Part shown: piece after piece, positions 5,197 to 52,652 of the stretch | How positions within the stretch are numbered: position 1 is the first letter of the stretch | How the letters are laid out: each line of letters opens with the position of its first letter | Source of the DNA: Acidobacteriota bacterium | GTDB lineage: Bacteria; Acidobacteriota; UBA6911; RPQK01; JADFOI01 | Direction of reading: 5' to 3' | Length of the DNA stretch: 64,000 nt | NCBI GenBank assembly: GCA_963663035.1 | Contig: OY760074.1 | Coordinates: 1,792,001 to 1,856,000, forward strand | Made by a program: the position numbers and the translations under genes | Notes under the pieces: generated by a model | What the model saw: only the letters and a program-made list of their open reading frames with translations | Databases searched by the model: none | Told to the model about the DNA's origin: nothing

Positions 5197-5209
5197 TGGG
5201 TGCTTTCTT

Positions 5210-8650: not shown

Positions 8651-8748
8651 GCTGACAGCTGACACCTGACACCTGACAGGACTTCTAGGTTCCGAGTTTT
8701 GAATTTAGGATTTGGAATTTTGAATTTCCGCCGGCCTTCGGCCGGCGG
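8651..8748. repeat. CTGACA(C/G) heptamers, ATTTGGA-type heptamers and palindrome
   Basis: gctgacagctgacacctgacacctgacagg, gaatttaggatttggaattttgaattt, ccgccggccttcggccggcgg. Confidence 0.7.
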
Positions 8749-21201: not shown

Positions 21202-23070
21202 ATGAAGAAGCACCACTTTTGGATGGCAGCTGCAGCCCTAGCAGCGAGCATCAGTTTCGGCTCTGCCCAGCAGGCTGCGGATACCATTTTGCACAACGGG
21301 AAGGTTCTGACCGTGGACGCGAATTTCAGCATTGCAGAGGCGGTGGCGGTTCGCGGCGACCAGATTCTGGCGGTGGGAACCAACAATGAGATTCTGCGGC
21401 TGGCCGGCCCCGACACGGTCAGGATTGACTTGAAGGGGAGAACGCTGACGCCGGGACTCGTCCATACCCACGTGCATCAGGAGTCCCCAGGGGGTTATGG
21501 CAGCGACCTGACCGCCGCGCAGCGCAAGCGATATCCTATAAACTTCAGACTGGTGAAGACCAAGGACGACGTCCTCAAACAGATCGAGGACATTATTGCG
21601 GCCTTCCCTTTCCAGCCGGGCGAGTGGATCCAGTTCTCCACCAATCCAAGGGGAGATCAGGCTCGGATGCTCTATGACGAGCTGGACCGGTGGGAACTAG
21701 ACAAGGCCGCTCCAGACAATCCGATTGCCTTGTCCATGGGAATACCGATCCTGAACATGGCGCTGGTCAACAGTAAGGCCATTGAAGCACTGTGGGACAG
21801 GTATGGCGACTTTGTTGAAACCTACGGGCGTTACTGGCTCGATTCCTCGGGCAGGCCCGATGGCCACCTGGAGCCTCCCGCCGTCCGCACCCTTGTTCAA
21901 GAGTTTATGCCGGAGCCCGACGTCGAACTCATGGCCCCGCTCTACAAGCAGGCTCTCCAGGAACGGGCAGCATTGGGTGTCACCACCATGTCAGGGGGTC
22001 TCCATGAATTCTCTGTGGACGTCTATCAATGGCTGGACGCCCGCGGTGAAATGCCACTGAGATATGGCTACGGTGTAGCCTGGACGTTTGGGATGCCCGG
22101 CGTGGACATGAAGCAGTATGAAATGGGCGGCGGCACCGATACGGTCTGGATCACTTCGATGAGTCCCCGGGCGATTGACGGGGCGGGCTCCAGAATGTGC
22201 ATTTCGCTCGACAGAGACTCCGACGCAGTGACCGCTGCTGCGGGAGAAGTCAGTGGGATGATGGGACTCTCTGCCATCTCCGAGTGGTGGCCGCGAGGGC
22301 AATGCCACATGGATATCGAGTACAGTGGAGGTTCCCGGGGAGCGAGTCTGAAGGGCAACTATTACCCCGAGTGGTTCAACGAGGTTGCCCAGGACGGTCT
22401 GCGCTCCGCCAATAATCACGTGTCTGGGGATGAGTCCCACTCCCGCTATATTTCGACGCTGGAAAGTATCGACCGGGCCAATCCGGGAGCGGTCAAAGGC
22501 TGGGGCCTGGATCATTGTAATATGATCAATCCCCAGGACATTCCCCGCGCAGCAAAGCTCGGACTGATGTGGAGCTGCAACATGGTAGACGCCATCATGA
22601 CGTCCATAGCCGATGCCTTTGGCGAGCAAGTGCTGCACAACTATGCAGTACCGATCAAGTCGATGCTTGATGCCGGCATTAACGTCTCCCAGGAGGGTCA
22701 GTGGGAAGGCATAGAAACCCTGGTCACGCGAAAAGACGTCAACGGCAAGGTCTGGGGAGCCCATGAACGGGTGGATCGGGAGACCGCCCTGAGGATCTCC
22801 ACCCAGAACGGGGCCAATTATGTTCTGAAAGGGGACAAGCTTGGCTCCATCGAGCCGGGAAAGCTGGCCGACCTGGTGGTCATCGATCGCGATTACCTGT
22901 CGATGCCCGAGGACGATTTTTCTGAAATCCAATCCCTGCTGACCATGCTGGGGGGTAAATTCATTTTCGTGCACACCGATTTTGCCGACGAGCAAAACCT
23001 GAGGCCAGCCGGCGCGCTCATCAGCACCTTGGAGGGTTTGCAGAGCCGCCGACCGGCGAGGACCTTCTAG
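21202..23070 (+). CDS. Secreted YtcJ-like amidohydrolase (Amidohydro_3), array copy 1
   Basis: Signal peptide; NGKVLTVD, IDLKGRTLTPGLVHTHVH, GSIEPGKLADLVV. Confidence 0.9.
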   Translation: MKKHHFWMAAAALAASISFGSAQQAADTILHNGKVLTVDANFSIAEAVAVRGDQILAVGTNNEILRLAGPDTVRIDLKGRTLTPGLVHTHVHQESPGGYGSDLTAAQRKRYPINFRLVKTKDDVLKQIEDIIAAFPFQPGEWIQFSTNPRGDQARMLYDELDRWELDKAAPDNPIALSMGIPILNMALVNSKAIEALWDRYGDFVETYGRYWLDSSGRPDGHLEPPAVRTLVQEFMPEPDVELMAPLYKQALQERAALGVTTMSGGLHEFSVDVYQWLDARGEMPLRYGYGVAWTFGMPGVDMKQYEMGGGTDTVWITSMSPRAIDGAGSRMCISLDRDSDAVTAAAGEVSGMMGLSAISEWWPRGQCHMDIEYSGGSRGASLKGNYYPEWFNEVAQDGLRSANNHVSGDESHSRYISTLESIDRANPGAVKGWGLDHCNMINPQDIPRAAKLGLMWSCNMVDAIMTSIADAFGEQVLHNYAVPIKSMLDAGINVSQEGQWEGIETLVTRKDVNGKVWGAHERVDRETALRISTQNGANYVLKGDKLGSIEPGKLADLVVIDRDYLSMPEDDFSEIQSLLTMLGGKFIFVHTDFADEQNLRPAGALISTLEGLQSRRPARTF

Positions 23071-23104
23071 GGGTATGGGAATAACGAGGTTTGAAGGGAT
23101 CACC

Positions 23105-24973
23105 ATGAAGAAGCACCAGTTTTGGATGGCAACTGCAGCCCTGGCAGCGAGCATCAGTTTCGGCTCTGCGCAACAGGCTGCAGACACGATTTTGCACAAC
23201 GGGAAGGTTTTGACCGTGGACGCGAATTTCAGCATTGCCGAGGCGGTGGCGGTTCGCGGCACCGAGATTCTGGCGGTGGGAACCAACAATGAGATTCTGC
23301 GGCTGGCCGGTCCCGACACGGTCAGGATTGACTTGAAGGGGAGAACGTTGACGCCGGGGCTCATCAATACCCACGTGCATCAAGAATCTCCTGGGGGTTA
23401 TGGCACTGACCTGACCGCACCGCAGCGCGCCCAGTATCCTTTGAACTTCAGAACCGTCAAAACCAAAGACGACGTCCTCAAGCAGATCGAGGACATTATT
23501 GCGGCCTTCCAGATCCCGCCGGGCGAGTGGATTAATTTCTCCACCAATCCGAGGGGAGATCAGGCCAGGATTCTCTATGACGACCTGGACCGGTGGGAAC
23601 TGGACAAGGCCGCTCCAGACAATCCTATTGGTTTGTCCATGGGAATACCGATCCTGAACATGGCGCTGGTCAACAGCTTGGCCATTGAAGCGCTGTGGGA
23701 CAAGTATGGCGACTTCGTTGAGACCTACGGCCGCTACTGGGTGGATGCCTCCGGCCGTCCCGACGGTCACCTGGAGCCTCCCGCCGTGCGCACCCTTGTT
23801 CAAACGTTTATGCCGGAGCCCGACGTCGAACTCATGGCCCCGCTCTACAAGAAGGCTCTCGAGGAACGGGCAGCCTTGGGTGTGACCACCATGTCGGGAG
23901 GTCTTCATGAATTCTCCGTGGATGTCTATCAATGGCTGGACGCCCGCGGTGAAATGCCGCTGAGATATGGCTACGGTGTAGCCTGGACGTTTGGGATGCC
24001 AGGTATGGACATGAAGCAGTACGAAATGGGCGGCGGCAGCGACACGGTGTGGATCACTTCGATGAGTCCCCGGGCGATTGACGGGGCGGGTTCCAGAATG
24101 TGCATTTCGCTCGACAGGGACTCCGACGCTGTGACTGCTGCTGCGGGGGAAGTCAGTGGGATGATGGGACTCTCTGCCATCTCCGAGTGGTGGCCGCGCG
24201 GCCAATGCCATATGGACATCGAGTACGGTGGAGGAACCCGAGGGGCGAGTCTGAAGGGCAACTATTACCCCGAGTGGTTTGCCGAGGTTGCCCGGGACGG
24301 TCTGCGCTCCGCCAATAATCACGTGGATGGGGATGAGTCCCACGCCCGCTATATTTCGACGCTGGAACGTATCGACCAAGCCAATCCGGGATCGGTCAAA
24401 GGATGGGCCATGGACCATTGTAATATGATCAGGCCCGAGGACATTCCACGCGCTGCAAAGCTCGGACTGATGTGGAGTTGCAACATGGATAGAGCTGTCT
24501 CGACGCCCGTGGCCGCGGCCTTTGGCGATGAAATACTGCACACCTATGCTGCACCCATCAAGTCCATGCTGGAGGCCGGCGTTAACGTCTCCCAGGAGGG
24601 GCAGTGGGACGGAATCGAACACATGATCACGCGAAAGGACGAAGATGGCAAGGTCTGGGGAGCCCATGAACGGGTGGACCGGGAGACCGCCTTGAGAGTC
24701 TCCACCCAGAACGGGGCCAATTATGTTCTGAAAGGGGACCAACTTGGCTCCATCGAGCCGGGCAAACTGGCCGACCTGGTGGTCATCGACCGCGATTACC
24801 TGTCGATGCCCGAGGATGATTTTTCTGAAATCCAATCCCTGCTGACCATGTTGGGGGGCAAATTCATTTTCGTGCACACCGATTTTGCAGACGAGCAAAA
24901 CCTGAGGCCAGCCGGCGCGCTCATCAGCACATTGGAGGGTTTGCAGAGCCGCAGACCGGCGAGGAACTTTTAG
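23105..24973 (+). CDS. Secreted YtcJ-like amidohydrolase, array copy 2
   Basis: Paralog of copy 1; MKKHQFW start at 23105. Confidence 0.9.
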   Translation: MKKHQFWMATAALAASISFGSAQQAADTILHNGKVLTVDANFSIAEAVAVRGTEILAVGTNNEILRLAGPDTVRIDLKGRTLTPGLINTHVHQESPGGYGTDLTAPQRAQYPLNFRTVKTKDDVLKQIEDIIAAFQIPPGEWINFSTNPRGDQARILYDDLDRWELDKAAPDNPIGLSMGIPILNMALVNSLAIEALWDKYGDFVETYGRYWVDASGRPDGHLEPPAVRTLVQTFMPEPDVELMAPLYKKALEERAALGVTTMSGGLHEFSVDVYQWLDARGEMPLRYGYGVAWTFGMPGMDMKQYEMGGGSDTVWITSMSPRAIDGAGSRMCISLDRDSDAVTAAAGEVSGMMGLSAISEWWPRGQCHMDIEYGGGTRGASLKGNYYPEWFAEVARDGLRSANNHVDGDESHARYISTLERIDQANPGSVKGWAMDHCNMIRPEDIPRAAKLGLMWSCNMDRAVSTPVAAAFGDEILHTYAAPIKSMLEAGVNVSQEGQWDGIEHMITRKDEDGKVWGAHERVDRETALRVSTQNGANYVLKGDQLGSIEPGKLADLVVIDRDYLSMPEDDFSEIQSLLTMLGGKFIFVHTDFADEQNLRPAGALISTLEGLQSRRPARNF

Positions 24974-25033
24974 AGCTATGGGATTATGAGGTTTGAAAGT
25001 TAAGGGGCACTTCAACGACCGGGAGGGATCACC

Positions 25034-26902
25034 ATGAAGAAGCACCAGTTTTGGATGGCAGTTGCAGCCATTGCAGCGAGTATCAGTTTCGGCTCTGCCC
25101 AGCAGGCTGCGGACACGATTTTACACAACGGGAAGGTTCTGACCGTTGACGCGGATTTCAGCATTGCGGAAGCGGTGGCGGTTCGCGGCGACCAGATTCT
25201 GGCGGTGGGAACCAACAATGAGATTCTGCGTCTGGCCGGCCCCGATACGGTCAGCATCGACTTGAAGGGGAAAACGGTGACGCCGGGAATCATCCATACC
25301 CACGTGCATCAGGAATCCCCTGGGGGTTATGGCAGCAACCTGACCGCCGCGCAGCACAAGCGATATCCTTTGAACTTTAGAACCGTCAGAACCAAGGACG
25401 ACATCCTCAAGCAGATCGAAGACATCATTGCGGCCTTCGACTTCGAGCCGGGCGAGTGGATCTCTTTCACCACCAACCCGACGGGGGATCAGGCCAGGAT
25501 CCTCTATGACGACCTGAACCGGTGGGAACTGGACAAGGCCGCTCCGGACAATCCGATCACCGTGTCCCTGGGAGTACCGATCCTGAACATGCTGCTGGTC
25601 AACGGTAAGGCTATCGATGCGCTGTGGGACAGGTATGGCGACTTTGTTGAAACCTACGGGCGCTACTGGGTCGACGACCGCGGCCGTCCCGACGGTCATC
25701 TGGAGCCGCCGGCCGTCCGTGCTCTGGTTCAAACGTTTGTGCAGGAGCCCGAGGTCGAGCTCATGGCCCCGCTCTACAAAAAGACTCTCGAGGAGCGGTC
25801 AGCAATCGGTATCACGACCCTTTCTGGGGGTCTCCATGAATTCTCAGTGGATGTCTATAAATGGCTCGACGCCCGCGGTGAAATGCCGCTGAGATACGGC
25901 TACGGTGTAGCCTGGACGTTCGGAATGCCAGGCGTGGACATGACGGAGTACGAAATGGGAGGCGGCACCGACACGCTCTGGATCACTTCGATGAGTCCCC
26001 GAGGGATTGACGGGGCGGGCTCCAGAATGTGCATTTCGCTGGACAGAGACTCCGACGCAGTGACCACCGCCGGGGGAGGAGTCAGTGGAATGATGGGACT
26101 CTCTGCCATCTCCGAATGGTGGCCGCGCGGGCAGTGCCACATGGACATCGAGTACAAAGGAGGTGCTCGGGGGGCAAGCATCAGGCGCAACTACTTCCCG
26201 GAGTGGTACACCGAGGTAGCCCGGGGCGGTCAGCGCGCCGCCAATACTCACATGTCTGGGGATGAGTCCCACACCCGCTATATTTCGGCGCTGGAACGTC
26301 TCGACCGGGCCAATCCGGGAGCGGTCAAAGGCTGGGCCATGGACCATTGCAGTATGATCAAGCCCCTCGACATTCCACGCGCGGCAAGGCTCGGACTGAT
26401 GTGGAGCTGCAACATGGCCAGCGCTATCTCGACGCCCCTGGCCGCGGCCTTTGGCGATGAAGTGCTGCACACCTATGCTGCACCCATCAAGTCCATGCTG
26501 GATGCCGGCGTTAACGTCTCCCAGGAGGGGGCGTGGGACGGTATGGAAACCATGATCACGCGCAAGGACGATGAAGGCAAGGTCTGGGGACCCGATGAAC
26601 GGGTGGACCGGGAAACCGCCTTGAGAGTCTCCACCCAGAACGGGGCCAATTATGTCCTGAAAGGCGACAAGCTTGGCTCCATCGAGCCGGGAAAGCTGGC
26701 CGACCTGGTGGTCATCGACAGCGACTACCTGACGATGCCCGAGGAAGATATTTCTGAAGTCCAATCCCTGCTGACCCTGTTGGGGGGCAGATTCATCTTC
26801 GTGCGCTCCGATTTTGCCGACGAGCACAACCTGAGACCGGCCGGCGCGCTCATTAGCACCTTGGAAGATTTGCAGAGCCGCCGCCCGGCCAACAACTTTT
26901 AG
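25034..26902 (+). CDS. Secreted YtcJ-like amidohydrolase, array copy 3
   Basis: Paralog with the same motifs; GGAGG RBS. Confidence 0.9.
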   Translation: MKKHQFWMAVAAIAASISFGSAQQAADTILHNGKVLTVDADFSIAEAVAVRGDQILAVGTNNEILRLAGPDTVSIDLKGKTVTPGIIHTHVHQESPGGYGSNLTAAQHKRYPLNFRTVRTKDDILKQIEDIIAAFDFEPGEWISFTTNPTGDQARILYDDLNRWELDKAAPDNPITVSLGVPILNMLLVNGKAIDALWDRYGDFVETYGRYWVDDRGRPDGHLEPPAVRALVQTFVQEPEVELMAPLYKKTLEERSAIGITTLSGGLHEFSVDVYKWLDARGEMPLRYGYGVAWTFGMPGVDMTEYEMGGGTDTLWITSMSPRGIDGAGSRMCISLDRDSDAVTTAGGGVSGMMGLSAISEWWPRGQCHMDIEYKGGARGASIRRNYFPEWYTEVARGGQRAANTHMSGDESHTRYISALERLDRANPGAVKGWAMDHCSMIKPLDIPRAARLGLMWSCNMASAISTPLAAAFGDEVLHTYAAPIKSMLDAGVNVSQEGAWDGMETMITRKDDEGKVWGPDERVDRETALRVSTQNGANYVLKGDKLGSIEPGKLADLVVIDSDYLTMPEEDISEVQSLLTLLGGRFIFVRSDFADEHNLRPAGALISTLEDLQSRRPANNF

Positions 26903-27096
26903 CCCGCATTATGCATAAATTTTCTGCTACAGTGGCGCAATCATCCGCGCTGACGGCGTTGTCCTTCCTTGCGCTCCTCGGCGTACTGCACGAGTACGCC
27001 TGCGGGACGCGACCCGCAAGCGGGTACCCCTCACACGCCTTGTCATCGCGGCGCTTGCGCCACTTCGCTACGAAAACCTATGCATAGTGCGGGCTA
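26900..27096 (+). mobile_element. MITE-like hairpin element, copy B (long form)
   Basis: tagcccgcattatgcata...tatgcatagtgcgggcta; the left end coincides with the TAG stop of copy 3. Confidence 0.75.
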
Positions 27097-27125
27097 GGGC
27101 ACTTCAACAACAAGGAGCAATCACC

Positions 27126-29006
27126 ATGAAGAAGCACCAGTTTTGGATGGCAGCTGCAGCCCTAGCGGCGAGCATCAGTTTCGGCTCTGCCCAGCAGGCT
27201 GCGGACACGATTTTGCACAACGGTAAGGTTCTGACCGTGGACGCGAATTTCAGCATTGCAGAGGCGGTGGCGGTTCGCGGCGACCAGATTCTGGCGGTGG
27301 GAACCAACAATGAGATTCTGCGGCTGGCCGGCCCCGACACGGTCAGGATTGACTTGAAGGGGAGAACGCTGACGCCGGGACTCGTCCATACCCACGTGCA
27401 TCAGGAGTCCCCAGGGGGTTATGGCAGCGACCTGACCGCCGCGCAGCGCAAGCGATATCCTATAAACTTCAGACTGGTGAAGACCAAGGACGACGTCCTC
27501 AAACAGATCGAGGACATTATTGCGGCCTTCCCTTTCCAGCCGGGCGAGTGGATCCAGTTCTCCACCAATCCAAGGGGAGATCAGGCTCGGATGCTCTATG
27601 ACGAGCTGGACCGGTGGGAACTAGACAAGGCCGCTCCAGACAATCCGATTGCCTTGTCCATGGGAATACCGATCCTGAACATGGCGCTGGTCAACAGTAA
27701 GGCCATTGAAGCACTGTGGGACAGGTATGGCGACTTTGTTGAAACCTACGGGCGTTACTGGCTCGATTCCTCGGGCAGGCCCGATGGCCATCTGGAGCCT
27801 CCCGCCGTCCGTACCCTTATTCAAGAGTTTATGCCGAAGCCCGACGTCGAACTCATGGCCCCGCTCTACAAGAAGACTCTCCAGGAACGGGCAGCAGTGG
27901 GTGTGACCACCATGTCGGGGGGGCTCCATAAATTCTCTGTGGATGTCTATAAATGGCTCGATGCCCGCGGTGAAATGCCGCTGAGATATGGCTACGGTGT
28001 AGCCTGGACGTTTGGGATGCCAGGCATGGACATGAAGCAGTACGAAATGGGCGGAGGTAGCGACACGGTCTGGATCACTTCGATGAGTCCCCGGGCAATT
28101 GACGGGTCGGGCTCCAGAATGTGCGTTTCGATCGAGAGAGACTCCCAGGCAGTGACCGATGTTGCGGGAGAAGTCAGTGGAATGATGGGACTCTCTGCCA
28201 TCTCCGAGTGGTGGCCGCGCGGCCAATGCCACATGGATATTGAGTACAGTGGAGGGACCCGGGGGGCCAGCCTGAAGGGCAACTATTACCCCGAGTGGTT
28301 CGGCGAGGTTGCCGCACAAGGTCTGCGCTCAGCCAACAATCACACCTCCGGGGATGAGTCCCACTCCCGCTATATTTCGACGCTGGAAAGTATCGACCGG
28401 GAGAATCCGGGAGCAGTCAAAGGCTGGGCCATGGACCACTGTGATCTGATCAGGCCCGAGGACCTTCCACGCGCGGCAAAGCTCGGAATAATGTTCAGCT
28501 GCGACATCAGGTTCGGCGTCTCGGAGGGCTTCTCCGATGCCAAGGCCGCGGCCTTTGGCGAGGAGGTGGTACACAACTATGCGGTACCGATCAAGTCGAT
28601 GCTCGACCTGGGCATTAACGTCTCTCAGGAGGGACAGTGGGACGGTGTGGAACTCATGATCACGCGCAAGGACGGACAGGGCAAGGTCTGGGGACCCGAT
28701 CAACGAGTAGACCGCGAGACTGCCCTGAGGATCTCCACCCAGAACGGAGCCAATTATGTCCTGAAAGGCGACAAGCTTGGCTCCATCGAGCCGGGCAAGC
28801 TGGCCGACCTGGTGGTCATCGACAGCGATTACCTGTCGATGCCCGAGGACGATATCGCTGACATTCAATCCCTACTGACCCTGTTGGGGGGCAAATTCAT
28901 CTTCGTGCGCTCCGATTTTGCCGACGAGCAAAACCTGAGGCCAGCCGGCGCGCTCATCAGCACCTTGGAGGATTTGCAGAAGCGACGCCCGGCGAGAAAC
29001 TTTTAA
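27126..29006 (+). CDS. Secreted YtcJ-like amidohydrolase, array copy 4
   Basis: AAGGAG RBS, ATG 27126; 5' part identical to copy 1. Confidence 0.9.
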   Translation: MKKHQFWMAAAALAASISFGSAQQAADTILHNGKVLTVDANFSIAEAVAVRGDQILAVGTNNEILRLAGPDTVRIDLKGRTLTPGLVHTHVHQESPGGYGSDLTAAQRKRYPINFRLVKTKDDVLKQIEDIIAAFPFQPGEWIQFSTNPRGDQARMLYDELDRWELDKAAPDNPIALSMGIPILNMALVNSKAIEALWDRYGDFVETYGRYWLDSSGRPDGHLEPPAVRTLIQEFMPKPDVELMAPLYKKTLQERAAVGVTTMSGGLHKFSVDVYKWLDARGEMPLRYGYGVAWTFGMPGMDMKQYEMGGGSDTVWITSMSPRAIDGSGSRMCVSIERDSQAVTDVAGEVSGMMGLSAISEWWPRGQCHMDIEYSGGTRGASLKGNYYPEWFGEVAAQGLRSANNHTSGDESHSRYISTLESIDRENPGAVKGWAMDHCDLIRPEDLPRAAKLGIMFSCDIRFGVSEGFSDAKAAAFGEEVVHNYAVPIKSMLDLGINVSQEGQWDGVELMITRKDGQGKVWGPDQRVDRETALRISTQNGANYVLKGDKLGSIEPGKLADLVVIDSDYLSMPEDDIADIQSLLTLLGGKFIFVRSDFADEQNLRPAGALISTLEDLQKRRPARNF

Positions 29007-29068
29007 CGTTTGGAAGTCTATAACCACAGCCCTCTGACGGGCACCGAAGAAAACAGGGAGAGATTACC

Positions 29069-30937
29069 ATGAAGAAGCACCAGTTTTGGATGGCGGCTGC
29101 AGCCATAGCAGCGAGCATCAGTTTCGGCTCTGCCCAGCAGCCTGCCGACACGATTTTTCACAACGGCAAGGTTTTGACCGTGGACGCGAATTTCAGCGTT
29201 GCCGAAGCGGTGGCAGTTCGCGGCGACCAGATTCTGGCGGTGGGAACCAACACTGAGATTCTGCGGCTGGCCGGCCCCGACACGGTCAGGATTGACTTGA
29301 AGGGAAGAACGCTGACGCCGGGGCTCATCCATACCCACGTCCATCAGGAATCCCCCGGGGGTTACGGCAGCGACCTGACCGCCGCGCAGCACGCGCGATA
29401 TCCTTTGAACTTCAGAACTGTCACAACCAAAGACGACGTCCTCAAACAGATTGCGGACATTATTTCGGCCTTCCAGATCCCGCCGGGCGAGTGGATTAAC
29501 TTCTCCACCAACCCGAGAGGAGATCAGGCCAGGATGCTCTATGACGAGCTGGACCGGTGGGAGCTGGACAAGGTCTCTCCAGACAATCCTATTGGTTTGT
29601 CCATGGGAATACCGATCCTGAACATGGCGCTGGTCAACAGCTTGGCCATTGAAGCGCTGTGGGACAAGTATGGCGACTTCGTTGAGACCTACGGGCGCTA
29701 CTGGCTTGATTCCTCCGGCCGACCCGACGGTCATCTGGAGCCACCGGCCGTCCGCACCCTTGTTCAAGAGTTTATGCCGGAGCCCGATGTCGAACTCATG
29801 GCCCCACTCTATAAGTTGGCTCTCCAGGAACGGGCAGCCTTGGGTGTCACCACCATGTCGGGGGGTCTTCATAAATTCTCTGTGGATGTCTATCAATGGC
29901 TCGACGCCCGCGGTGAAATGCCGCTGAGATATGGCTACGGTGTAGCTTGGACGTTTGGGATGCCAGGCGCGGACATGACTCAGTACGAAATGGGCGGCGG
30001 CACCGACACCGTCTGGATCACTTCGATGAGTCCACGGGCGGTTGACGGATCGGGTTCCAGAATGTGCATTTCGCTTGACAGAAACTCCGACGCAGTGACC
30101 GCTGCTGCGGGAGAAGTCAGTGGGATGATGGGACTCTCTGCCATCTCCGAGTGGTGGCCGCGCGGCCAATGCCACATGGACATCGAGTACAGTGGAGGTT
30201 CCCGGGGAGCAAGTCTGAAGGGCAACTACTTCCCGGAGTGGTACAACGAGGTCGCCCGGGACGGTCTGCGCACCGCCAATACTCACATGTCTGGAGATGA
30301 GTCCCACACACGCTATCTTTCAGCGATGGAACGAATCGACCAGGCCAATCCGGGATCGGTCAAAGGCTGGGGCATGGACCATTGTGATTTGATCAGGCCC
30401 GATGACATCCCACGAGCGGCAAAACTCGGACTGATGTGGAGTTGCGACCTTGGAGACGCCGTCTCGACGCCTGTGGCCGCGGCCTTTGGCGATCAAGTGC
30501 TGCACACCTATGCCGTACCGATCAAGTCGATGCTGGATGCCGGCATTAACGTCTCCCAGGAGGGGGAGTGGAACGGTATTGAACTCATGATCACGCGCAA
30601 GGACAGAGACGGCAAGGTTTGGGGGCCCGATCAACGGTTGGACCGGGAGACCGCCCTGAGAGTCTCCACCCAGAACGGGGCCAATTATGTCCTGAAAGGC
30701 GACAAGCTCGGCTCCATCGAGCCCGGCAAACTGGCCGACCTGGTGGTCATCGACAGCGATTTCCTGTCGATGCCGGAAGAGGATATTTCTGAAATCGAAT
30801 CCCTGCTGACCCTGTTGGGAGGCAAATTCATTTTCGTGCACTCCGATTTTGCCGACGAACAGAACTTGAGGCCAGCCGGCGCGCTCATCAGCACGTTGGA
30901 GGGCTTGCAGAGCCGACGCCCGGCGAGAGGCTTCTAG
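29069..30937 (+). CDS. Secreted YtcJ-like amidohydrolase, array copy 5
   Basis: Paralog with the same motifs. Confidence 0.9.
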   Translation: MKKHQFWMAAAAIAASISFGSAQQPADTIFHNGKVLTVDANFSVAEAVAVRGDQILAVGTNTEILRLAGPDTVRIDLKGRTLTPGLIHTHVHQESPGGYGSDLTAAQHARYPLNFRTVTTKDDVLKQIADIISAFQIPPGEWINFSTNPRGDQARMLYDELDRWELDKVSPDNPIGLSMGIPILNMALVNSLAIEALWDKYGDFVETYGRYWLDSSGRPDGHLEPPAVRTLVQEFMPEPDVELMAPLYKLALQERAALGVTTMSGGLHKFSVDVYQWLDARGEMPLRYGYGVAWTFGMPGADMTQYEMGGGTDTVWITSMSPRAVDGSGSRMCISLDRNSDAVTAAAGEVSGMMGLSAISEWWPRGQCHMDIEYSGGSRGASLKGNYFPEWYNEVARDGLRTANTHMSGDESHTRYLSAMERIDQANPGSVKGWGMDHCDLIRPDDIPRAAKLGLMWSCDLGDAVSTPVAAAFGDQVLHTYAVPIKSMLDAGINVSQEGEWNGIELMITRKDRDGKVWGPDQRLDRETALRVSTQNGANYVLKGDKLGSIEPGKLADLVVIDSDFLSMPEEDISEIESLLTLLGGKFIFVHSDFADEQNLRPAGALISTLEGLQSRRPARGF

Positions 30938-30970
30938 GAAGGGGCATTTCAACAACAAGGAGCAATCACC

Positions 30971-32851
30971 ATGAAGAAGCACCAGTTCTGGATGGCAGCT
31001 GCAGCCATAGCAGCGAGCATCAGTTTCGGCTCTGCCCAGCAGACTGCGGATACCATTTTTCACAACGGCAAGGTTCTGACCGTTGACGAAAATTCCAGCG
31101 TTGCCGAGGCGGTGGCGGTTCGCGGCACCCAAATACTGGCGGTGGGAACCAACAATGAGGTTCTCCGCCTGGCCGGCCCCGACACGGTCAGGATTGACTT
31201 GAAGGGGAGAACGGTGACGCCGGGGCTGATCCATACCCACGTGCATTCGGAATCACCCGGGGGTTATGGCGGTGACCTGTCTGCCGCGCAGCTCAAGCGA
31301 TTTCCGGTGAACTTCAGAGACGTCACAACCAAGGACGACGTCATCAAGCAGATGAAGGACATTATTGCGGCCTTCCAGATCAAGCCGGGCGAGTGGGTCG
31401 CCTTCACCGGCAATCCGCGGGGAGATCAGGCTAGACTGCTCTGGGACGACCTGAACCGGTGGGAACTGGACAAGGCCGCTCCAGACAATCCGATCTCTCT
31501 GTCGGGGGGTATTCCCGTCGTAAACATGATGCTGCTCAACAGTAAGGCCCTGGACCAGCTGTGGGCCAAGTATGGAGACTTCATTGAAACCTACGGGCGT
31601 TACTGGATCGACGCCTCCGGCCGTCCCGATGGCCACCTGGAGGCTCCGGCCGTCCGTATCCTTCTGGAGGATGATGACTTTGTGCCGAATGCCGCGCCCC
31701 AGGACGTGGGTCCACTCTTCAAGAATGTTCTAGAGGAACGGTCAGCAGCGGGTATCACGACCATTTCAGGGGGCCTACACACCTCCAGCGTCCGGGTCTA
31801 TCAATGGCTCGACGCCCGAGGCGAAATGCCGCTGAGATATGCCTACGGTGTCATGTCGACATTTGGATTCCCAGACAGAGACAACAAGCAGTTCAAAATG
31901 GGCGCCGGCACCGACATGGTGTGGATCAGTTCGATGAGTGCGCGGGCGGTCGACGGGGCGGGCTCCAGAATGTGCATTTCGATCGAGAGAGACTCCCAGG
32001 CATCGGCCGCTGTTGAAGGAGCGGAAGCCTCCTTGATGGGGCTGTCTGCGGTCTCCGAGTGGTGGCCACGAGGCCAATGTTTGATGGACATCGAGTACGG
32101 AGGAGCAACCAAGGGAGCCAGCATCAAGGCCAACTACTTCATGGAGTGGTACAACCAGGTTGCCCGGGACGGTCTGCGCTCCGGAAATGCTCACATGTCT
32201 GGGAATGACTCCCACGCCCGCTTTATTTCCGAGCTGGAGCGTATCGACCGGGCCAATCCGGGAGCGGTCAAAGGCTGGGCCATGGACCATTGCACGCTGA
32301 TCAATCCCGAGGACGTTCCACGGGCAGCCAAGCTGGGACTGATGTGGAGCTGCACTCCGTTGGGCGAAGGGGGCCGCGCCCCCATGATTGGGGCGGCTTT
32401 CGGCGAGGAGGTGGCCCACACCTATGTAGCTCCGATTAAGCACATGCTTGACGCAGGCATCAACGTCTCCCTGGAAGGGGGTTGGTCGGCGATAGAAAGC
32501 CTGATCACGCGCAAGGACGCGGACGGCAATGTGTGGGGGCCTGACGAAAGGGTGGACCGGGCAACCGCTCTGAGAGTTGCCACCCGCAACGGAGCCAATT
32601 ATGTCCTTAAAGGTGACACCCTCGGCTCCATCGAAGCAGGCAAGTTGGCCGACCTGGTGGTCATCGACCGGGATTTCATGACGATGTCTGTGGAAGACAT
32701 TTCTGAAATTCGAACGTTAGTGACCATGATAGGGGGCAAGTTCAAGTTCCTGCATTCCGACTTTGCCAACGAATACAACCTGAGACCGACCGGCGCGCTC
32801 ATCAGCACATTGGAAGATTTGCAAAAGCGCCGCCCGTCGAGGGGCTTCTGA
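30971..32851 (+). CDS. Secreted YtcJ-like amidohydrolase, array copy 6 (most divergent in the array)
   Basis: Paralog; its TGA overlaps the ATG of the next gene. Confidence 0.9.
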   Translation: MKKHQFWMAAAAIAASISFGSAQQTADTIFHNGKVLTVDENSSVAEAVAVRGTQILAVGTNNEVLRLAGPDTVRIDLKGRTVTPGLIHTHVHSESPGGYGGDLSAAQLKRFPVNFRDVTTKDDVIKQMKDIIAAFQIKPGEWVAFTGNPRGDQARLLWDDLNRWELDKAAPDNPISLSGGIPVVNMMLLNSKALDQLWAKYGDFIETYGRYWIDASGRPDGHLEAPAVRILLEDDDFVPNAAPQDVGPLFKNVLEERSAAGITTISGGLHTSSVRVYQWLDARGEMPLRYAYGVMSTFGFPDRDNKQFKMGAGTDMVWISSMSARAVDGAGSRMCISIERDSQASAAVEGAEASLMGLSAVSEWWPRGQCLMDIEYGGATKGASIKANYFMEWYNQVARDGLRSGNAHMSGNDSHARFISELERIDRANPGAVKGWAMDHCTLINPEDVPRAAKLGLMWSCTPLGEGGRAPMIGAAFGEEVAHTYVAPIKHMLDAGINVSLEGGWSAIESLITRKDADGNVWGPDERVDRATALRVATRNGANYVLKGDTLGSIEAGKLADLVVIDRDFMTMSVEDISEIRTLVTMIGGKFKFLHSDFANEYNLRPTGALISTLEDLQKRRPSRGF

Positions 32852-33429
32852 TGAACAAAACTTCCCTTATTGGACTGAGCCTCTGGACAGCCATCGTCAG
32901 CTTGGGCGGACCCTCCTTTACAGCCCATGCTGCCGCGCAGGAAGAGGGCAGGAAAGTCACCAGTTTGGATTTGGGCTATGACGCCAACATTCCGGGCCAT
33001 GAGGCCCTTTTGGCGCTGACTCTGGATGTGGCGGAGGGAGTTCAGGTGAAAACGGTCATCGGCGAGATCACCTTCCCCACTGCGCTGGTCTCATTTGAAG
33101 AGGTCCTGAGCGGGCTGTCGGCTCAGGCATCGGGTGCGGCAGTCAGCGCTGTTGTACAAGTGGATGATCAAAATCCGGAGAACTCTATTGTCACCGTGAC
33201 CGTGTCAACCGAAGGGGAACGGTCTATTCCCAGCGGTGTCATTGCCGATCTCGCTTTCATCATTTCCGAAGATGCTCCCCTTGAGGAGACGGTCACCTTG
33301 GGAACTGTGGCAAGAGCATTGACCACAGATGATCCGCCTGCCCCGGTCGATCCAATCTTAGGGATGGAAGGCGAGATCCTGGTCACTGAAACCCCTCCCG
33401 TCTTCGTTTGCTTCTTCTTCATGCACTGA
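32851..33429 (+). CDS. Secreted cohesin-like beta-sandwich protein with C-terminal CFFFMH motif
   Basis: Signal peptide (AAA|Q). PG..A.L.LTL, I.FP..LVSF..V..G, IPSGVIADLAF.IS..A and G.I.V strands fit the cohesin pattern; ends PPVFVCFFFMH. Confidence 0.65.
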   Translation: MNKTSLIGLSLWTAIVSLGGPSFTAHAAAQEEGRKVTSLDLGYDANIPGHEALLALTLDVAEGVQVKTVIGEITFPTALVSFEEVLSGLSAQASGAAVSAVVQVDDQNPENSIVTVTVSTEGERSIPSGVIADLAFIISEDAPLEETVTLGTVARALTTDDPPAPVDPILGMEGEILVTETPPVFVCFFFMH

Positions 33430-33438
33430 TTTCTGCAC

Positions 33439-33589
33439 TAGCCCGCATTCTGCATAGGTTCTCGTAGCGAAGTGGCGCAAGCGCCGCAATGACAAGGCGT
33501 GTGAGGGGTACCCGCTTGCGGGTCGCACAACGCCGTCAGGGCGGATGATGGCGCCACTGTAGCAGAGAAGTTATGCAGAGTGCGGGCTT
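33439..33589 (-). mobile_element. MITE-like hairpin element, copy C (short form, inverted)
   Basis: tagcccgcattctgcata...tatgcagagtgcgggct; reverse-complement homolog of copy B without the internal module of about 45 bp. Confidence 0.75.
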
Positions 33590-33637
33590 ACGCCTCAGCT
33601 CTCATTGTCAGACACCGGACGTATTCTGACTAGAGGC

Positions 33638-41375: not shown

Positions 41376-41508
41376 GGTCACTCCAGATCCTCGCCCCAGA
41401 TCCGTTTTTTCCACCTTAGAACATTGACGCATCCTTTGGGATGGGTTAAAAGGACTGTCAAGATACCGACCGGTGGAGTTGGCAGGACAATTAATTGAGG
41501 AGGATAGC

Positions 41509-43365
41509 ATGAAAAGATTTTTCACCCTGTTCGTTATGGGACTCCTGTCCCATGGTTTCGGGCTCTCCCAGCAGATTCCAGATTTGGTAGCCCAGCACGG
41601 CTATGCAGACATGATTCTGGTCAACGGGAAAATAGTCACAATGGATGACTGGAGCGTCGTTCCCAACACGCCTGGGCACATTTTTCAGAGCATGGCCATC
41701 AAAGGGAAGAAAATTATGGCCCTGGGAACCGATGCGGAGATGAGGGCACTGGCTGGACCTCAGACCCGCGTTACGGACGTGCGGGGTAAAACCGTCATCC
41801 CGGGCTTGATTCAGACTCACTACCACCTTTTCGGAGCTGCAGCCGGCCGCTACGGACCTGAGGTTGGTCTGGTGGATCCGAGCGTACGGCTCACCGTGGT
41901 GGCAGAGGATTCGCCGGAAGCCACTTCGAAGAAACTCAGAGATTCAATCGTGAACGCAATCAGGGTGCAAAACATACCCGAAGGAGACTGGATTTCGGTC
42001 AGGCTGCAAGAAGGGCCGGAGAATCTACCCGGCACGAACCGCATTTGGCTTTACGGGAGTTCGATCAATCGAAGAACCATTCAGTTGGATAGTGCCGTAC
42101 CGGACCATCCCACGGTGATTAATGCCGGGCAGTCGGGAATCTTCAACGAGGCTGCAATCAGCGAGATCACAGAGGTATTTCCCGATTGGGCGGAGAGCAC
42201 GGATTTGGAAAATCGGCCGGGAGCAGCCAGGGACGGATACGCAGCCGTTCCCGAACTGCAAGGCATGACCTTCTCCTACTGGTGGAGGAATGAACCCATT
42301 GAAAAGCTGGCCGAAGCGATGCGCTTGCATGGCCTTGAAATACTGAAGTCGGGCCTGACCACGGTCTCCACTCGTATCCTCTTCCCCACGGTCGTCCAGG
42401 CTTATAACCTGCTCAACAGAGAAGGTACCCTGCCTCACCGCTTGTCTTATTACCAGGAACCACAGAGAGGCAACTTTTTCAACACCAAGTCATTTAACGA
42501 GTTTTATAAAGGATCGGGGGCTCCCTGGACCAACCATTCGGGAGGCGGCGAGATGCTGTGGTTGTCCGGAATGTCCAACGAAATTTGGGATTCCAGCCAG
42601 TGGGAGGTGTGTTTGGGACCCGATATCGATGCTCCTGCTGATCTCAAGGAAAGGCAGCGCTGCCCGGGGCCTGGAACCAGACCCTGGGATGTCATCAAGG
42701 CCGCTGTGATGACCGGCTGGCGGCCGGCCGGTGTTCACGGGACTTCCAACCACGGCGTGAGACTCTACATCGAGATGCTCGAAAGTGCGATGAGAGACGC
42801 CAACCTGTCAGTTGAGCACATCAGAAGCCTTCGCACCACCATGGAACACAATCAGCTTCTGGGCGCTTCTCCAGATGTGATGGCCAAGCTGAAAGAGTAC
42901 AACATCCTCCTCAATGTCAATATGCCCTATCTCAACGCTGCCGCGATGCTGATCGATGCCTACGGTGAAGAGCTCAGACCCTTCGCCATGCCGGTCAAGA
43001 CCTGGCTCAATGAGGGCATAAGGGTCACCTTCGAGGCCCAGGGAACCAATTTTTGGAGGCCCATTCACACACTCGTCACCCGCCAGATCACCAATCAAGG
43101 AACAGGTGAACAAGAGATACTCCTTCCAGAGGAGGCTGTGGACCGAGTGACCGCCCTGAAGATGACCACCACCTGGGCATCCTATTACGTTCTGGCTGAG
43201 GACACCCTGGGCACCCTGGAGCCGGGGAAGTACGCCGATTTTGCAGTTCTGGATCAAGACTTCTTCACGGTTCCGGTCGAGGAAATTCCTGACATGGAGG
43301 TCATCATGACCGGACTGGGAGGCGAAGTCGTCTATGATCGCGATCAGTTAGCGGGCGGCAACTAA
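41509..43365 (+). CDS. Secreted YtcJ-like amidohydrolase (divergent member)
   Basis: GAGGAGG RBS, signal peptide, NGKIVTMD, PGLIQTHYH, GTLEPGKYADFAVL. Confidence 0.88.
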   Translation: MKRFFTLFVMGLLSHGFGLSQQIPDLVAQHGYADMILVNGKIVTMDDWSVVPNTPGHIFQSMAIKGKKIMALGTDAEMRALAGPQTRVTDVRGKTVIPGLIQTHYHLFGAAAGRYGPEVGLVDPSVRLTVVAEDSPEATSKKLRDSIVNAIRVQNIPEGDWISVRLQEGPENLPGTNRIWLYGSSINRRTIQLDSAVPDHPTVINAGQSGIFNEAAISEITEVFPDWAESTDLENRPGAARDGYAAVPELQGMTFSYWWRNEPIEKLAEAMRLHGLEILKSGLTTVSTRILFPTVVQAYNLLNREGTLPHRLSYYQEPQRGNFFNTKSFNEFYKGSGAPWTNHSGGGEMLWLSGMSNEIWDSSQWEVCLGPDIDAPADLKERQRCPGPGTRPWDVIKAAVMTGWRPAGVHGTSNHGVRLYIEMLESAMRDANLSVEHIRSLRTTMEHNQLLGASPDVMAKLKEYNILLNVNMPYLNAAAMLIDAYGEELRPFAMPVKTWLNEGIRVTFEAQGTNFWRPIHTLVTRQITNQGTGEQEILLPEEAVDRVTALKMTTTWASYYVLAEDTLGTLEPGKYADFAVLDQDFFTVPVEEIPDMEVIMTGLGGEVVYDRDQLAGGN

Positions 43366-46700: not shown

Positions 46701-46998
46701 CTGGCAGGGCAGTACTGGCCCGCTCGCTCGAGCCCTTAGTAACTCATCGCGGACGAGCATGAGAGGTCCGGGCGTGGCCAATTTTGACTTTTCCTTGAAC
46801 AAGACCACCAATATTTGGGAGGAAGTGGCGTTGCAGATTCGGTTCGAGTTTTTCAACCTCACCAACAATCCCAGTTTTAGACTGCCCTCCGGCAGGATCT
46901 TTAGTGGGTCGGGGCGCCTATCGTCCAGTGCCGGACGTGTGAGCGGGACCACCCAAACCATGCGTGAGGCCCAAATCGCTCTCAGGATCACCTTCTAG
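43729..46998 (+). CDS. TonB-dependent receptor (Oar-like, N-terminal carboxypeptidase-regulatory-like domain)
   Basis: GTIKDTTGAVLPGA, LPLNGR, SKGGTNEFHGS, YFQDDWKV..NLTVNLGLRYE, PRIGFAWD, C-terminal QIALRITF. Confidence 0.93.
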   Translation: MSRLLPIFVILTITVFPALAQITSATIVGTIKDTTGAVLPGAEIVLTNVATGITRTNISDDEGRYTASSLSIGTYEVSAGLPGFQTSVRSGITLTTGREAVIDFTLSLGEITERVTVTGEAALVETTSGSLGGLVDKQTIMELPLNGRDLTDLITLQPGTVTITAASTSNNSGFTQKISIGGARPQDNLILIDGTEMKSTDSGVPAGVSGNFMGAEATQEFKIETSAYSAIYGGNAGGVINVISKGGTNEFHGSIYEFHRNDNLDSADFRAPAVIDSNSGAFIGKEKAEFKRNQFGFAVGGPIIENRTFFFFNYEGMRDRRGRSGTVTTFGPNARLGLLPDGPSGSLVQHPLAPEVIPYFALWPNPVGLEWENLGDGTFRKGTTEQNPTNEDFYQGRVDHQITDNDSFFARFTWNDSRIADPAAFPQWQTDQYVYSRLSTMEWKRIQSANLLNTFRVGANRRGGDKETFQDPDVDPALPFVPLSAWRAPLGAGYVMGSISGTGATTVGVSNGWARNLTNRFQYIDDVVYNKGAHSYKFGVNFMRIQYNVDGPSRPAGAFSFGGIEDFLAAEPSSFRGDILPTQDSQRGLRISQWGVYFQDDWKVLPNLTVNLGLRYELFTVPREVNGKLGNLKDPLNDTEVSCLGTEGCDWFENPSFKDFMPRIGFAWDPFGDGKMALRSGFGIFYNHMGPETYRQAIIRMKPFLIETNIRSTSTSSVPFADVFDQVVNNNIGTGDVHIFPYDYANDPHALQWNLNIQREIMPGTGLMVGYAGSRGLNVIKNVYLQTPVAQRINGRLVFPDDPVGGETRDLLPNQNPEFRSLRLRSREQSGDSWYHSLQMSLQRRFSNGFQTQFSYTFAKTMDEGSQINNDLSGASDGFVIPYYHEPDLYQGLSPFGVKHAFVNNFVIQLPFGQGRQFGGNMTGVAQHILGGWQVGGILSLISGPPGTYEQSDRGVMRTLGIGNDYPDIRAGMSPQILEDPDQWFSTDAFVWQGSTGPLARALSNSSRTSMRGPGVANFDFSLNKTTNIWEEVALQIRFEFFNLTNNPSFRLPSGRIFSGSGRLSSSAGRVSGTTQTMREAQIALRITF

Positions 46999-50570: not shown

Positions 50571-50748
50571 GGGCCGGCTCCATCAGTTGCCAAAACTCAC
50601 CTGGTTGAGCTAAGCTTCATCGGTTCTACCTGTCCAGCATACATTAACATGACAATGCTGTTCTCTTTTTCTCTTGCTCAGCTCCAGTGGAACCTCTAGA
50701 ATTGGCCCCCTGACCCGACTTGCACGTCAACAGCAGGCAGGTAACATA

Positions 50749-52620: not shown

Positions 52621-52652
52621 AGGTACCCAGGCACCAACGGAGGTTCATAGTT

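Follow-up and report, generated by a model that had tools for sequence, protein, structure and literature searches.

The window analysed here (the whole stretch of 64,000 nucleotides) contains six tandem amidohydrolase genes and, directly after the sixth, a gene for a small protein with a peculiar C-terminal tail, which raises the question of what this protein does beside the enzymes and what its tail binds (Table 1). The ATG of the small gene begins on the last base of the stop codon (TGA) of the amidohydrolase gene before it (TGATG, 32849-32853). From N- to C-terminus, its product consists of a signal-peptide-like start, a cohesin fold, a Pro linker, and the tail PPVFVCFFFMH, the reading frame ending in ...TETPPVFVCFFFMH before the stop codon. 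The mature part, from residue 28, has a pI of 4.05, with 26 Asp/Glu versus 5 Lys/Arg, and a single Cys. The predicted cleavage site (AHA/A) was read from the sequence by eye, and the N-terminus is comparable in all ten paralogs of the genome; we infer that the protein is secreted, its location probably being the periplasm. Metatranscriptome contigs from three runs in two studies cover parts of the gene (32744-32936, spanning the gene junction, and 33169-33491, spanning the tail); such RNA-library contigs do not prove transcription and were not counted as evidence.

Table 1. Features of the amidohydrolase array and of the adjacent cohesin-like gene, in coordinates of the window
Feature	Coordinates	Strand	Description	Basis
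Amidohydrolase paralog 1	21202-23070	+	first of five further tandem copies	ORF, Pfam
Amidohydrolase paralog 2	23075-24973	+	second of five further tandem copies	ORF, Pfam
Amidohydrolase paralog 3	25034-26902	+	third of five further tandem copies	ORF, Pfam
Amidohydrolase paralog 4	27087-29006	+	fourth of five further tandem copies	ORF, Pfam
Amidohydrolase paralog 5	29069-30937	+	fifth of five further tandem copies	ORF, Pfam
Secreted Amidohydro_3 gene, predicted binding partner	30971..32851	+	626 aa, adjacent, translationally coupled	PF07969, E 3.5e-41
Cohesin-like protein gene	32851..33429	+	192 aa, stop codon included	ORF list, sequence, homologs
Predicted Sec signal peptide	32851..32931	+	residues 1-27, MNKTSLIGLSLWTAIVSLGGPSFTAHA/A	sequence inspection: hydrophobic core, AHA/A
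Cohesin-fold beta-sandwich	32983..33390	+	residues about 45-180	AF2 blocks with pLDDT 84-95, Foldseek
Helix GLSAQA, centre of predicted interface	33115..33132	+	residues 89-94	complex model
Linker TPPVFV	33391..33408	+	residues 181-186; 183-185 touch the enzyme in the model	
C-terminal hexapeptide C-F-F-F-M-H	33409..33426	+	residues 187-192; family consensus C-F-F-Y-M-H	

The AF2 model of the 192-aa protein (mean pLDDT 71) is an eight-strand beta-sandwich, with a core at residues 45-180 mostly above 80 and the tail below 50. A Foldseek search against the PDB returned cohesins only among the matches listed, 45 of them at E <= 0.001 (5nrm_A at E 4.2e-6), and together the model and the search assign the protein to the nine-stranded jelly-roll cohesin fold (PF00963). 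The original prediction of a cohesin-like acidic beta-sandwich with a Pro linker and a tail is thus borne out by the reading frame, the charge and the fold. Pfam gave no match for this protein at E <= 0.1, PF00963 included; the Pfam Cohesin cut-off of 24.1 bits is exceeded by one paralog (L044:8812-9375, 36.6 bits) and by representatives P0264 (31.5 bits) and P0159 (26.7 bits), and five of the 31 homologs found at E <= 0.01 carry a precomputed PF00963 annotation. NCBIfam produced no usable match, and no SoxY or sorting-signal model. The family has ten members in this marine Acidobacteriota genome, and in the representative library it forms 573 clusters at 50% identity. Literature searches with the tail strings found no paper carrying the motif, and those on cohesins and amidohydrolases in Acidobacteria gave nothing relevant among the records listed; we regard the CFFYMH-tailed cohesin-like proteins as an undescribed family, large and lineage-restricted, for which no Pfam or NCBIfam model was found. 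In the ESM Atlas, only clusters of hypothetical proteins were matched, one of them with Cohesin assigned to 18% of its members.

In an alignment of 136 family members, no segment is better conserved than the tail. Among the best 150 of the 573 clusters, 149 representatives end in C-x4-H, mostly as [ASG]-C-F-F-Y-M-H. Within these 149 tailed representatives, Cys and His are invariant (149 each), the two Phe occur in 137 and 143, the next position is Tyr in 134 and Phe in 14, and Met is found in 133, with Thr, Ser or Asn taking its place in 13. Upstream, Pro stands at positions -11 and -10 in 66 and 75 representatives, respectively, followed at positions -9 to -6 by [VIL] (123/149), [FIVT...], [ASG] (135/149) and C (149/149). 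The tail is also kept in 30 of 31 close homologs, in all six members in one genome of a second family (found by profile), and in 41 of 41 members from 36 loci of other genomes, the scan behind the latter having partly used the tail motif as a probe. Conservation on this scale goes far beyond chance, and it decisively contradicts the lack of conservation that would have refuted the roles first proposed for the tail. In the genome itself, a six-frame scan of 27,232 ORFs (60 aa or longer) found the tail in 10, each of them cohesin-like.

Codons for the two invariant residues vary among 51 genes (TGC 31 and TGT 20 for Cys, CAC 34 and CAT 17 for His); since synonymous codons vary freely there, selection acts on the tail peptide. 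The same variation, together with differing downstream DNA, led us to reject the tail as a piece of a repeated DNA element. A selenocysteine instead of the tail Cys was rejected as well: G405:C2, the one match with an internal TGA, has this TGA within the domain and keeps its Cys, for which reason it is probably a broken copy. The 136-sequence alignment has no conserved Cys, His, Asp or Glu outside the tail, for which reason a cupredoxin-like metal site completed by the domain was rejected, and the conserved domain positions look like core residues. With only five residues after the Cys, none of them basic, the tail is indeed too short to span a membrane, as had been proposed, and it does not correspond to any recognised sorting signal, having no NCBIfam match, no helix or basic cluster, and a distribution limited to one domain family.

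An invariant Cys near the C-terminus of a probably periplasmic beta-sandwich, encoded beside hydrolases, recalls SoxY, which ends in GGCGG. A comparable carrier arm, with a substrate or intermediate held covalently on the tail Cys and presented to the neighbouring hydrolases, is very improbable here: a Gly-rich flexible arm is lacking, the tail being aromatic and bulky, NCBIfam gives no SoxY match, and genes for sulfur oxidation or acyl loading do not recur in the loci. The Sox system holds its intermediates on a Cys of the carrier SoxYZ (PMC5336275). SoxY resembles our protein as a periplasmic beta-sandwich with an essential Cys near its C-terminus that serves partner enzymes including a hydrolase, but differs in motif, flexibility and gene context, the loci studied here containing no Sox genes.

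The tailed proteins are associated with one type of enzyme. A secreted, non-canonical Amidohydro_3 gene lies within 400 nt of six of the ten tailed copies in the genome (0.9% under random placement), and an Amidohydro_3 ORF within 2 kb of eight (3.8%). In other genomes, 26 of 41 tailed members have an Amidohydro_3 gene within 400 nt, and three of the 15 without a close amidohydrolase sit at a contig end. Partner and enzyme diverged together (r = 0.76 for 31 distinct pairs with the tail removed; highest r in 1000 permutations, 0.26), although the adjacency and co-divergence counts are not independent because orthologous pairs from related genomes are included. Both families are present in 13 of 16 genomes tested and both absent from two, and one genome has only a TPR-fused copy, so that no genome has the enzyme subfamily without a tailed partner (0/16). 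Counting against the pairing, about 18 paralogs of another non-canonical amidohydrolase group and eight canonical ones lack such a cohesin-like neighbour. The real start of the 438-aa L031 ORF probably lies later, since this ORF overlaps an amidohydrolase ORF, and a search for longer fused forms of the tailed protein found none, which is weak evidence.

The tail is identical beside enzyme groups differing in active-site motifs, and it is present in copies without an amidohydrolase nearby (L037, L041) and in TPR-cohesin-tail fusions (the long representatives P0237 and P0264 and the G412/G413 genes), which lie in MoxR operons. These long forms had been considered as amidohydrolase fusions, which was rejected.

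Arrays of three to six tandem amidohydrolases share one partner gene, an arrangement that would suit a clustering device. The tail might accordingly be an oligomerisation tag, joining partner subunits by a Cys-Cys disulfide and/or by docking in the neighbour's beta-sandwich, much like the IxI motif of small heat-shock proteins (sHSPs), and so building multi-enzyme clusters from several amidohydrolase-partner pairs. The lone Cys of a probably periplasmic protein and the aromatic, strongly aggregation-prone character of the tail are consistent with such a role. We nevertheless consider it quite improbable, as no conserved surface groove was seen, the conserved domain positions being core-like, and the invariant terminal His would be left without explanation. 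A disulfide to the enzyme was rejected as a general mechanism, because group B partner enzymes have 0 to 2 Cys in their mature part.

No enzyme family has expanded more in these genomes than the secreted Amidohydro_3 proteins, with about 58 genes in 3.6 Mb. The predicted partner has a PF07969 score of 142.6 bits, above the cut-off, an HxH motif at H90 and H92, and a well-defined AF2 model (pLDDT 93.9) whose Foldseek matches include 3icj/3igh, TrzN, AtzA, and adenosine deaminase homologs. The five other copies of the array belong to the same subfamily, with 70-73% identity to the sixth. In an alignment of 58 amidohydrolase paralogs, the strand-4 Lys column has Lys in only eight; the six enzymes of the window have Ser or Ala with an adjacent Arg there, and Glu where the eight canonical paralogs have Asp. 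We take the aligned Lys and Asp columns to be metal ligands, which in binuclear enzymes are a Lys on strand 4 and an Asp on strand 8.

Prediction of a complex between the 192-aa protein and the 626-aa enzyme gave ipSAE values of 0.66, 0.66 and 0.58, against 0.00 for the best of three controls, with a partner pLDDT of at least 84 and at least 63% of contacts common to the runs. Of 157 solved complexes, 116 attain the mark used, as do 2 of 215 mismatched pairs; this calibration applies only roughly here because our own alignments and a riding Zn were used, and the prediction covers one cognate pair. On the partner side, the modelled interface is formed by residues 42-44, 53-55, 84-94, 127-130 and 135 of the cohesin domain and residues 183-185 of the linker, and on the enzyme side by a helical segment, residues 104-152, after the HxH metal motif. 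Contacts with the least expected error join enzyme residues 135, 134 and 131 to partner residues 93, 90 and 89, respectively, and G88, S90 and A91 of the partner are invariant among close homologs. The cohesin domain is thus predicted to bind the adjacent amidohydrolase. Together with adjacency, co-divergence and co-occurrence, this supports the link to the hydrolases assumed in the original prediction.

The model does not support the further proposal that the tail inserts into the hydrolase barrel and replaces the missing Lys bridge. The domain docks, in the one pair modelled, but the distal tail was not confidently placed: Cys187-His192 are absent from the confidently placed contacts even with Zn in the model, and the interface consists of the domain and linker. 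In its general form, which also takes in the original suggestion of a metal-delivery motif, this proposal holds that after docking the tail enters the barrel, where the Cys thiolate, His imidazole or terminal carboxylate would ligate the catalytic metal. The tail would then plug the enzyme in a latent state, as a cysteine switch does, activate it, or serve as a chaperone for metal insertion. Its Cys, Met, His and free carboxylate all belong to the classical metal ligands, with parallels in the C-terminal HCH of Ctr1, in CusF, and in the His-rich tail of UreE. The partner enzymes have no strand-4 Lys and carry the Asp-to-Glu difference, and since every partner subfamily has the metal centre in common, the invariance of the tail could be explained in this way too. 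In the model, the docking segment directly follows HxH, and the tail could still reach the active site because linker residues 183-185 contact the enzyme beside this segment. We consider the proposal unlikely nonetheless. Apart from the missing placement, which is weak evidence, the tail is kept where no amidohydrolase lies nearby and in TPR-fused forms next to MoxR ATPases, metal binding does not need an invariant F-F-Y, and the Met is replaceable. Moreover, the structures closest to the enzyme belong to mononuclear Zn enzymes that function without a bridging Lys; Lys-less amidohydrolases such as TrzN, AtzA and adenosine deaminase are ordinarily mononuclear and need no bridge.

Our preferred, though tentative, reading is that the gene encodes a secreted non-catalytic cohesin-fold subunit of the neighbouring amidohydrolase, with the invariant tail as an envelope tether or docking peptide. 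The beta-sandwich would be the specificity part, diverging together with its cognate enzyme subfamily and clamping the helical segment 104-152 after HxH, and the [VIL]-x-[ASG]-C-F-F-Y-M-H peptide would hang on the Pro linker as a second module. As the tail is the same in every paralog, it should serve one common target rather than the individual enzyme. This target may lie in the cell envelope, at the membrane interface or on an outer-membrane protein, or be a processing enzyme there that cuts or modifies the tail where the small residue meets the Cys. The subunit would then tether or deliver otherwise soluble amidohydrolases close to uptake systems, following a scaffoldin-like logic without dockerins. 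In favour of a common envelope target, TonB-dependent receptors or DUF5916/CBM9 outer-membrane proteins are found repeatedly in the loci of tailed proteins, among them a TonB-dependent receptor at 43729-46998 and the DUF5916/CBM9 proteins of L038. Fold, tail conservation, adjacency, co-divergence and co-occurrence are observed, binding is predicted, and secretion and, above all, the target of the tail are inferred. Against the envelope tether, the analysis found neither a receptor nor a sortase-like enzyme or lipid modification, the tail lacks a transmembrane stretch and a basic cluster and, unlike known sorting signals, is found on a single protein family, and the invariant Cys and C-terminal His suit metal or thiol chemistry better than simple anchoring. 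Of the functions first suggested for the tail, a new anchoring or processing signal in some form is the one we favour. In a bolder version, which is possible but doubtful, CFFYMH-COOH would be a new kind of C-terminal signal for protein targeting or processing in bacteria. Its six residues, from Cys to His and with no transmembrane segment, would be recognised by one envelope component and would pin cohesin adaptors and their cognate secreted amidohydrolases to the surface or outer membrane. Dockerin-independent adaptors and enzymes might thereby form an 'amidohydrolosome' scavenging organic nitrogen in marine Acidobacteriota.

The tethered-subunit reading has partial parallels in several known systems. 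Cellulosomal scaffoldin cohesins (PF00963) share the fold (Foldseek E 4e-6 to 1e-4, TM 0.67-0.75 on target), and some tailed paralogs pass their Pfam cut-off; in outline, both are non-catalytic modules encoded beside the enzymes predicted to be held. In contrast to scaffoldins, the proteins studied here are single-module and belong to a didermal Acidobacteriota lineage, with predicted contact by a helix and a loop (84-94, 127-130). No dockerin (PF00404) was matched at E <= 0.01 in the genome (96.6% complete), and the neighbouring amidohydrolases show only Amidohydro_3/Amidohydro_1 domains. Scaffoldins anchor via SLH domains or sortase signals and are not known to have a counterpart to the hexapeptide.

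The PEP-CTERM/exosortase, GlyGly-CTERM/rhombosortase, MYXO-CTERM and LPXTG/sortase signals are likewise short, near-invariant, lineage-restricted C-terminal signatures on many paralogs, and MYXO-CTERM also has an invariant Cys. The exosortase, rhombosortase and sortase signals, however, combine a motif with a transmembrane helix and a basic cluster, are carried by many unrelated protein families of a genome, and are recognised by curated models. The tail has neither a hydrophobic helix nor a basic cluster, ends five residues past its Cys, is confined to one domain family, and has no NCBIfam match. As possible modifiers of the tail, a radical-SAM/SPASM cluster and a rhomboid gene 25 kb upstream were set aside, since nothing links them to it. 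Positions -9 to -6 resemble the bacterial lipoprotein lipobox, [LVI][ASTVI][GAS]C, but a lipobox closes an N-terminal signal peptide and its Cys becomes the first mature residue, whereas the tail is C-terminal, behind Pro-Pro, the N-terminal signal peptide has no Cys, and cleavage before the tail Cys would separate the protein from the lipid. In the IxI motif of sHSPs and in encapsulin cargo-loading peptides, a conserved hydrophobic stretch of fewer than 10 residues, thought to fit one conserved pocket, likewise follows a folded domain by way of a flexible Pro/Gly linker; those systems are cytoplasmic, however, and the invariant Cys and terminal His set our tail apart from them.

If the pairing is real, it represents cohesin-based enzyme organisation outside cellulosomes and without dockerins, linking a classical fold for protein-protein interaction with the enzyme family that has expanded most in these genomes. 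Should the tail be a targeting, processing, metal or thiol arm, it would be a very small and sharply defined motif, and a possible tag. The tailed protein also gives a handle on the role and site of the unusual Lys-less amidohydrolases in marine Acidobacteriota.

The open reading frame that the original prediction had read as a cohesin-like protein is present as given and encodes 192 residues. Its hydrophobic N-terminus, ending AHA/A, is read by eye as a Sec signal peptide, and is followed by an acidic body, the Pro-rich stretches DDPPAPVDP and TETPP, and the final VFVCFFFMH (the tail). From residue 28 onward the protein has a pI of 4.05, 26 acidic and 5 basic residues, and a single Cys. The ATG of this gene, hereafter the partner gene, overlaps by one base the TGA stop of the amidohydrolase gene before it (TGATG). 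Pfam and NCBIfam gave no usable match for this copy. Its AF2 model (31-homolog alignment) has a confident beta-sandwich core, with pLDDT below 50 for the first 44 and last 11 residues, and all matches listed by Foldseek against the PDB were cohesins (5nrm_A, E 4.2e-6; 45 matches at E <= 0.001). Some relatives also exceed the Pfam Cohesin cut-off, and the label cohesin-like is therefore correct.

Coordinates of the features discussed (positions without a locus or contig name refer to the window)
Feature	Position	Strand	Remarks
Cohesin-like tail protein gene	32851..33429	+	ORF list and sequence
Six tandem amidohydrolase paralogs	21202-32851		partner gene follows the last (626 aa)
Other Amidohydro_3 members	41473-43365; 50674-54560
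TonB-dependent receptor	43729-46998		CarboxypepD_reg + OMP_b-brl_4
Radical-SAM/M48/rhomboid stretch	1219-6226; 6266-7738; 7890-8672	minus (1219-6226)
Hairpin-forming repeat	33438-33590		terminal inverted repeats; begins at CTAG 9 nt past partner stop
End of second repeat copy	27070-27097	minus	between amidohydrolase genes 3 and 4
Ends of two other own-genome tail genes	C1:2557412; C1:3198419		repeat-like sequence right at TAG stop
DUF5916/CBM9 outer-membrane proteins	L038:2272-5046; L038:13829-16009		own genome
TPR-cohesin-tail fusion	L045:1160-2839		genome G413
TPR-cohesin-tail fusion	L046:327-2024	minus	genome G412
Degraded tail-family copy	G000:C1:3409096-3409338		own genome; internal TAA; amidohydrolase gene 232 nt away
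Degraded tail-family copy	G405:C2:30737-30982		another genome; internal TGA

The pattern P-[VIL]-F-[AVI]-C-[FL]-F-[FY]-[ML]-H ends 30 of 31 close homologs, the remaining one having no tail at all. When 1.84 billion cluster representatives were searched by profile, 573 relatives came up at E <= 0.001 (282 at E <= 1e-10), and 149 of the best 150 end in C-x4-H. In these 149, Cys and His are invariant, the two Phe occur in 137 and 143, and the two positions before the His hold Y (134) or F (14) and then M (133; T 8, S 4); A, S or G precedes the Cys in 135, the residue one place further upstream is hydrophobic in most, and V, I or L occupies position -9 in 123. The tail strings listed suggest that Y pairs with M, and F with T or S. 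The tail is the segment of highest conservation in a 136-sequence alignment, where the domain is conserved only at the apparent core positions G129, F136, L150 and F82 and no conserved Cys, His, Asp or Glu was found outside the tail. In 51 genes synonymous codons alternate at the tail positions (TGC 31, TGT 20; CAC 34, CAT 17; TTC about equal to TTT), and it is therefore the peptide and not the DNA that is constrained. Chemistry beyond hydrophobic partitioning (processing, lipidation, disulfide, metal) is suggested by the invariant Cys, the small amino acid that precedes it and the His at the end; a SoxY-like thiol carrier seems to us a very improbable role for the partner.

A six-frame scan of the window's genome (3.59 Mb, single contig) found ten motif-ending frames among 27,232 of at least 60 aa. 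All ten are cohesin-like, about 180-250 aa long, with hydrophobic N-termini, and the tail was found on no other kind of frame in this set. In an even phylum sample the family occurs in 2 of 401 genomes, both from the window's own taxonomic family. Within that family between 1 and 14 matches per genome were obtained in 13 of 15 genomes, and the completeness of the two negatives is 65% and 72%. Eight matches come from one genome of another family in this order, and the six sequences fetched all end CFFYMH; one Binatia MAG was a further match when species genomes were scanned by pattern.

In the own genome, six of the ten tail genes have an Amidohydro_3-like frame no more than 400 nt away and eight have one within 2 kb, against random-placement expectations of 0.9% and 3.8% (binomial p ~1e-10, the paralogs not being independent). 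At 36 loci of other genomes an amidohydrolase lies less than 400 nt from 26 of 41 tail genes, in a scan that used the motif itself as one probe and is thus uninformative on tail-less relatives; 3 of the other 15 are at a contig end. The enzyme gene either converges with the tail gene or lies just upstream in the same direction, often only 0-43 nt away. Pairwise distances between partners and between adjacent enzymes correlate (r = 0.76, 31 distinct partners, tail removed; permutation maximum 0.26), a value that combines co-duplication and shared descent. Among 16 genomes tested for both families, 13 have both, two neither and one only a TPR-fused copy; the enzyme subfamily occurs without the tail family in none.

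We predicted the complex of mature enzyme (23-626, alignment A2), one Zn and mature partner (28-192, alignment A1). The ipSAE was 0.66, 0.66 and 0.58, versus 0.00 in each of the three controls; the partner had a pLDDT of 84 or more, and the runs shared no less than 63% of their contacts. Among solved complexes 116 of 157 attain this mark, as do 2 of 215 mismatched pairs, rates that are only approximate here because the prediction included our own alignments and a small molecule. No solved complex of a cohesin with an amidohydrolase is known to us, and memorisation by the predictor is therefore an unlikely source of the pass. The confident interface comprises enzyme residues 104-117, 127-136, 148-152 and 623-624 and partner residues 42-44, 53-55, 84-94 (GLSAQA helix), 127-130, 135 and 183-185. 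The enzyme segment comes after the HxH motif (H90, H92) and contains helix 121-134. The partner is probably a subunit of the neighbouring enzyme. Partner residues 187-192 are outside the confident contacts, which according to the tool is no evidence against touching. We consider it unlikely that the tail is an active-site or metal arm.

The own genome has 58 Amidohydro_3-like frames with 550 aa or more, the majority of which begin with a signal-peptide-like N-terminus. In their alignment, the strand-4 Lys and strand-8 [GS]-S-D, in columns that we take to hold metal ligands, are retained in eight, several with lipobox-like N-termini. The non-canonical paralogs fall mostly into three groups. The window's six tandem paralogs have S or A in the Lys column, with Arg adjacent, and S-x-E-G in strand 8, consistent with the missing Lys of the original prediction under our assignment of these columns; the second partnered group has T-V-Q-V-V-D-G and A-A-E-A-D, and the third (about 18 paralogs, D-G-V-A-S-E-R-W-D-S) never adjoins a tail gene. 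The enzyme model, which is confident (pLDDT 93.9), resembles YtcJ-like hydrolases (3icj, 3igh), TrzN, AtzA and adenosine-deaminase homologs. The latter three are mononuclear Zn enzymes, a type that does not require a bridging Lys.

Domain and tail behave as separate modules. Paralog domains diverge to about 25% identity and track the cognate enzyme, whereas the tail is unchanged beside enzyme groups differing in active-site motifs, in two copies without a nearby amidohydrolase (L037, L041) and in TPR fusions by MoxR ATPases. This is best fitted by a single tail target common to all copies, with the cohesin-like domain as the putative source of enzyme specificity, an arrangement that would follow adaptor or scaffoldin logic without dockerins. 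The two-module pattern therefore favours tethering or docking in the envelope, although the whole statement, domain-given specificity plus such a tail, is tentative. That the tail is instead an oligomerisation tag appears rather improbable. The protein is a relative of cohesins by fold but departs from them in respect of dockerins, none of which was found in the own genome. Unlike known C-terminal sorting signals, the tail has no helix, basic cluster or curated model and one cargo family only; it resembles a lipobox in four residues only, at the wrong protein end. The literature searched gave no match to the tail strings, and we class the protein as a putative cohesin adaptor that would act independently of dockerins and that carries a C-terminal signature not described before.

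The TPR fusions (two in the table, and cluster representatives P0237 and P0264) carry TPR repeats and the cohesin-like domain between a signal-peptide-like N-terminus and the tail (ILCFFYMH, LLCFFYIH, TTCFFYMH, TGCYMGMH). In G412 and G413, where context was read, the fusion gene directly follows a MoxR-like AAA ATPase gene identified by eye, and the own-genome tail gene at L040 looks to lie within a split Bat/MoxR-type operon.

The expansion of Amidohydro_3 genes in this 3.6-Mb genome is very large. Further neighbours are of various kinds (UbiD-like genes, CN-hydrolases, alpha/beta hydrolases, transporters, TonB-dependent receptors, DUF5916/CBM9 outer-membrane proteins); the last two recur at loci with amidohydrolase and tail-protein genes, which suggests uptake loci centred on amidohydrolases. 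Four radical-SAM genes, of which two encode a B12-binding domain and two SPASM, form an operon with an M48 peptidase gene and a rhomboid protease gene behind it; this stretch may be a peptide-modification cluster. The repeat behind the partner gene, folded as DNA, has -50.5 kcal/mol (z = -5.7) and looks like a CTAG-targeting IS1380-type MITE. As to the degraded copies, the own-genome fragment is seen as a profile match only, extending to the last position, and the G405 copy, read in sequence, yet retains an intact terminal tail.
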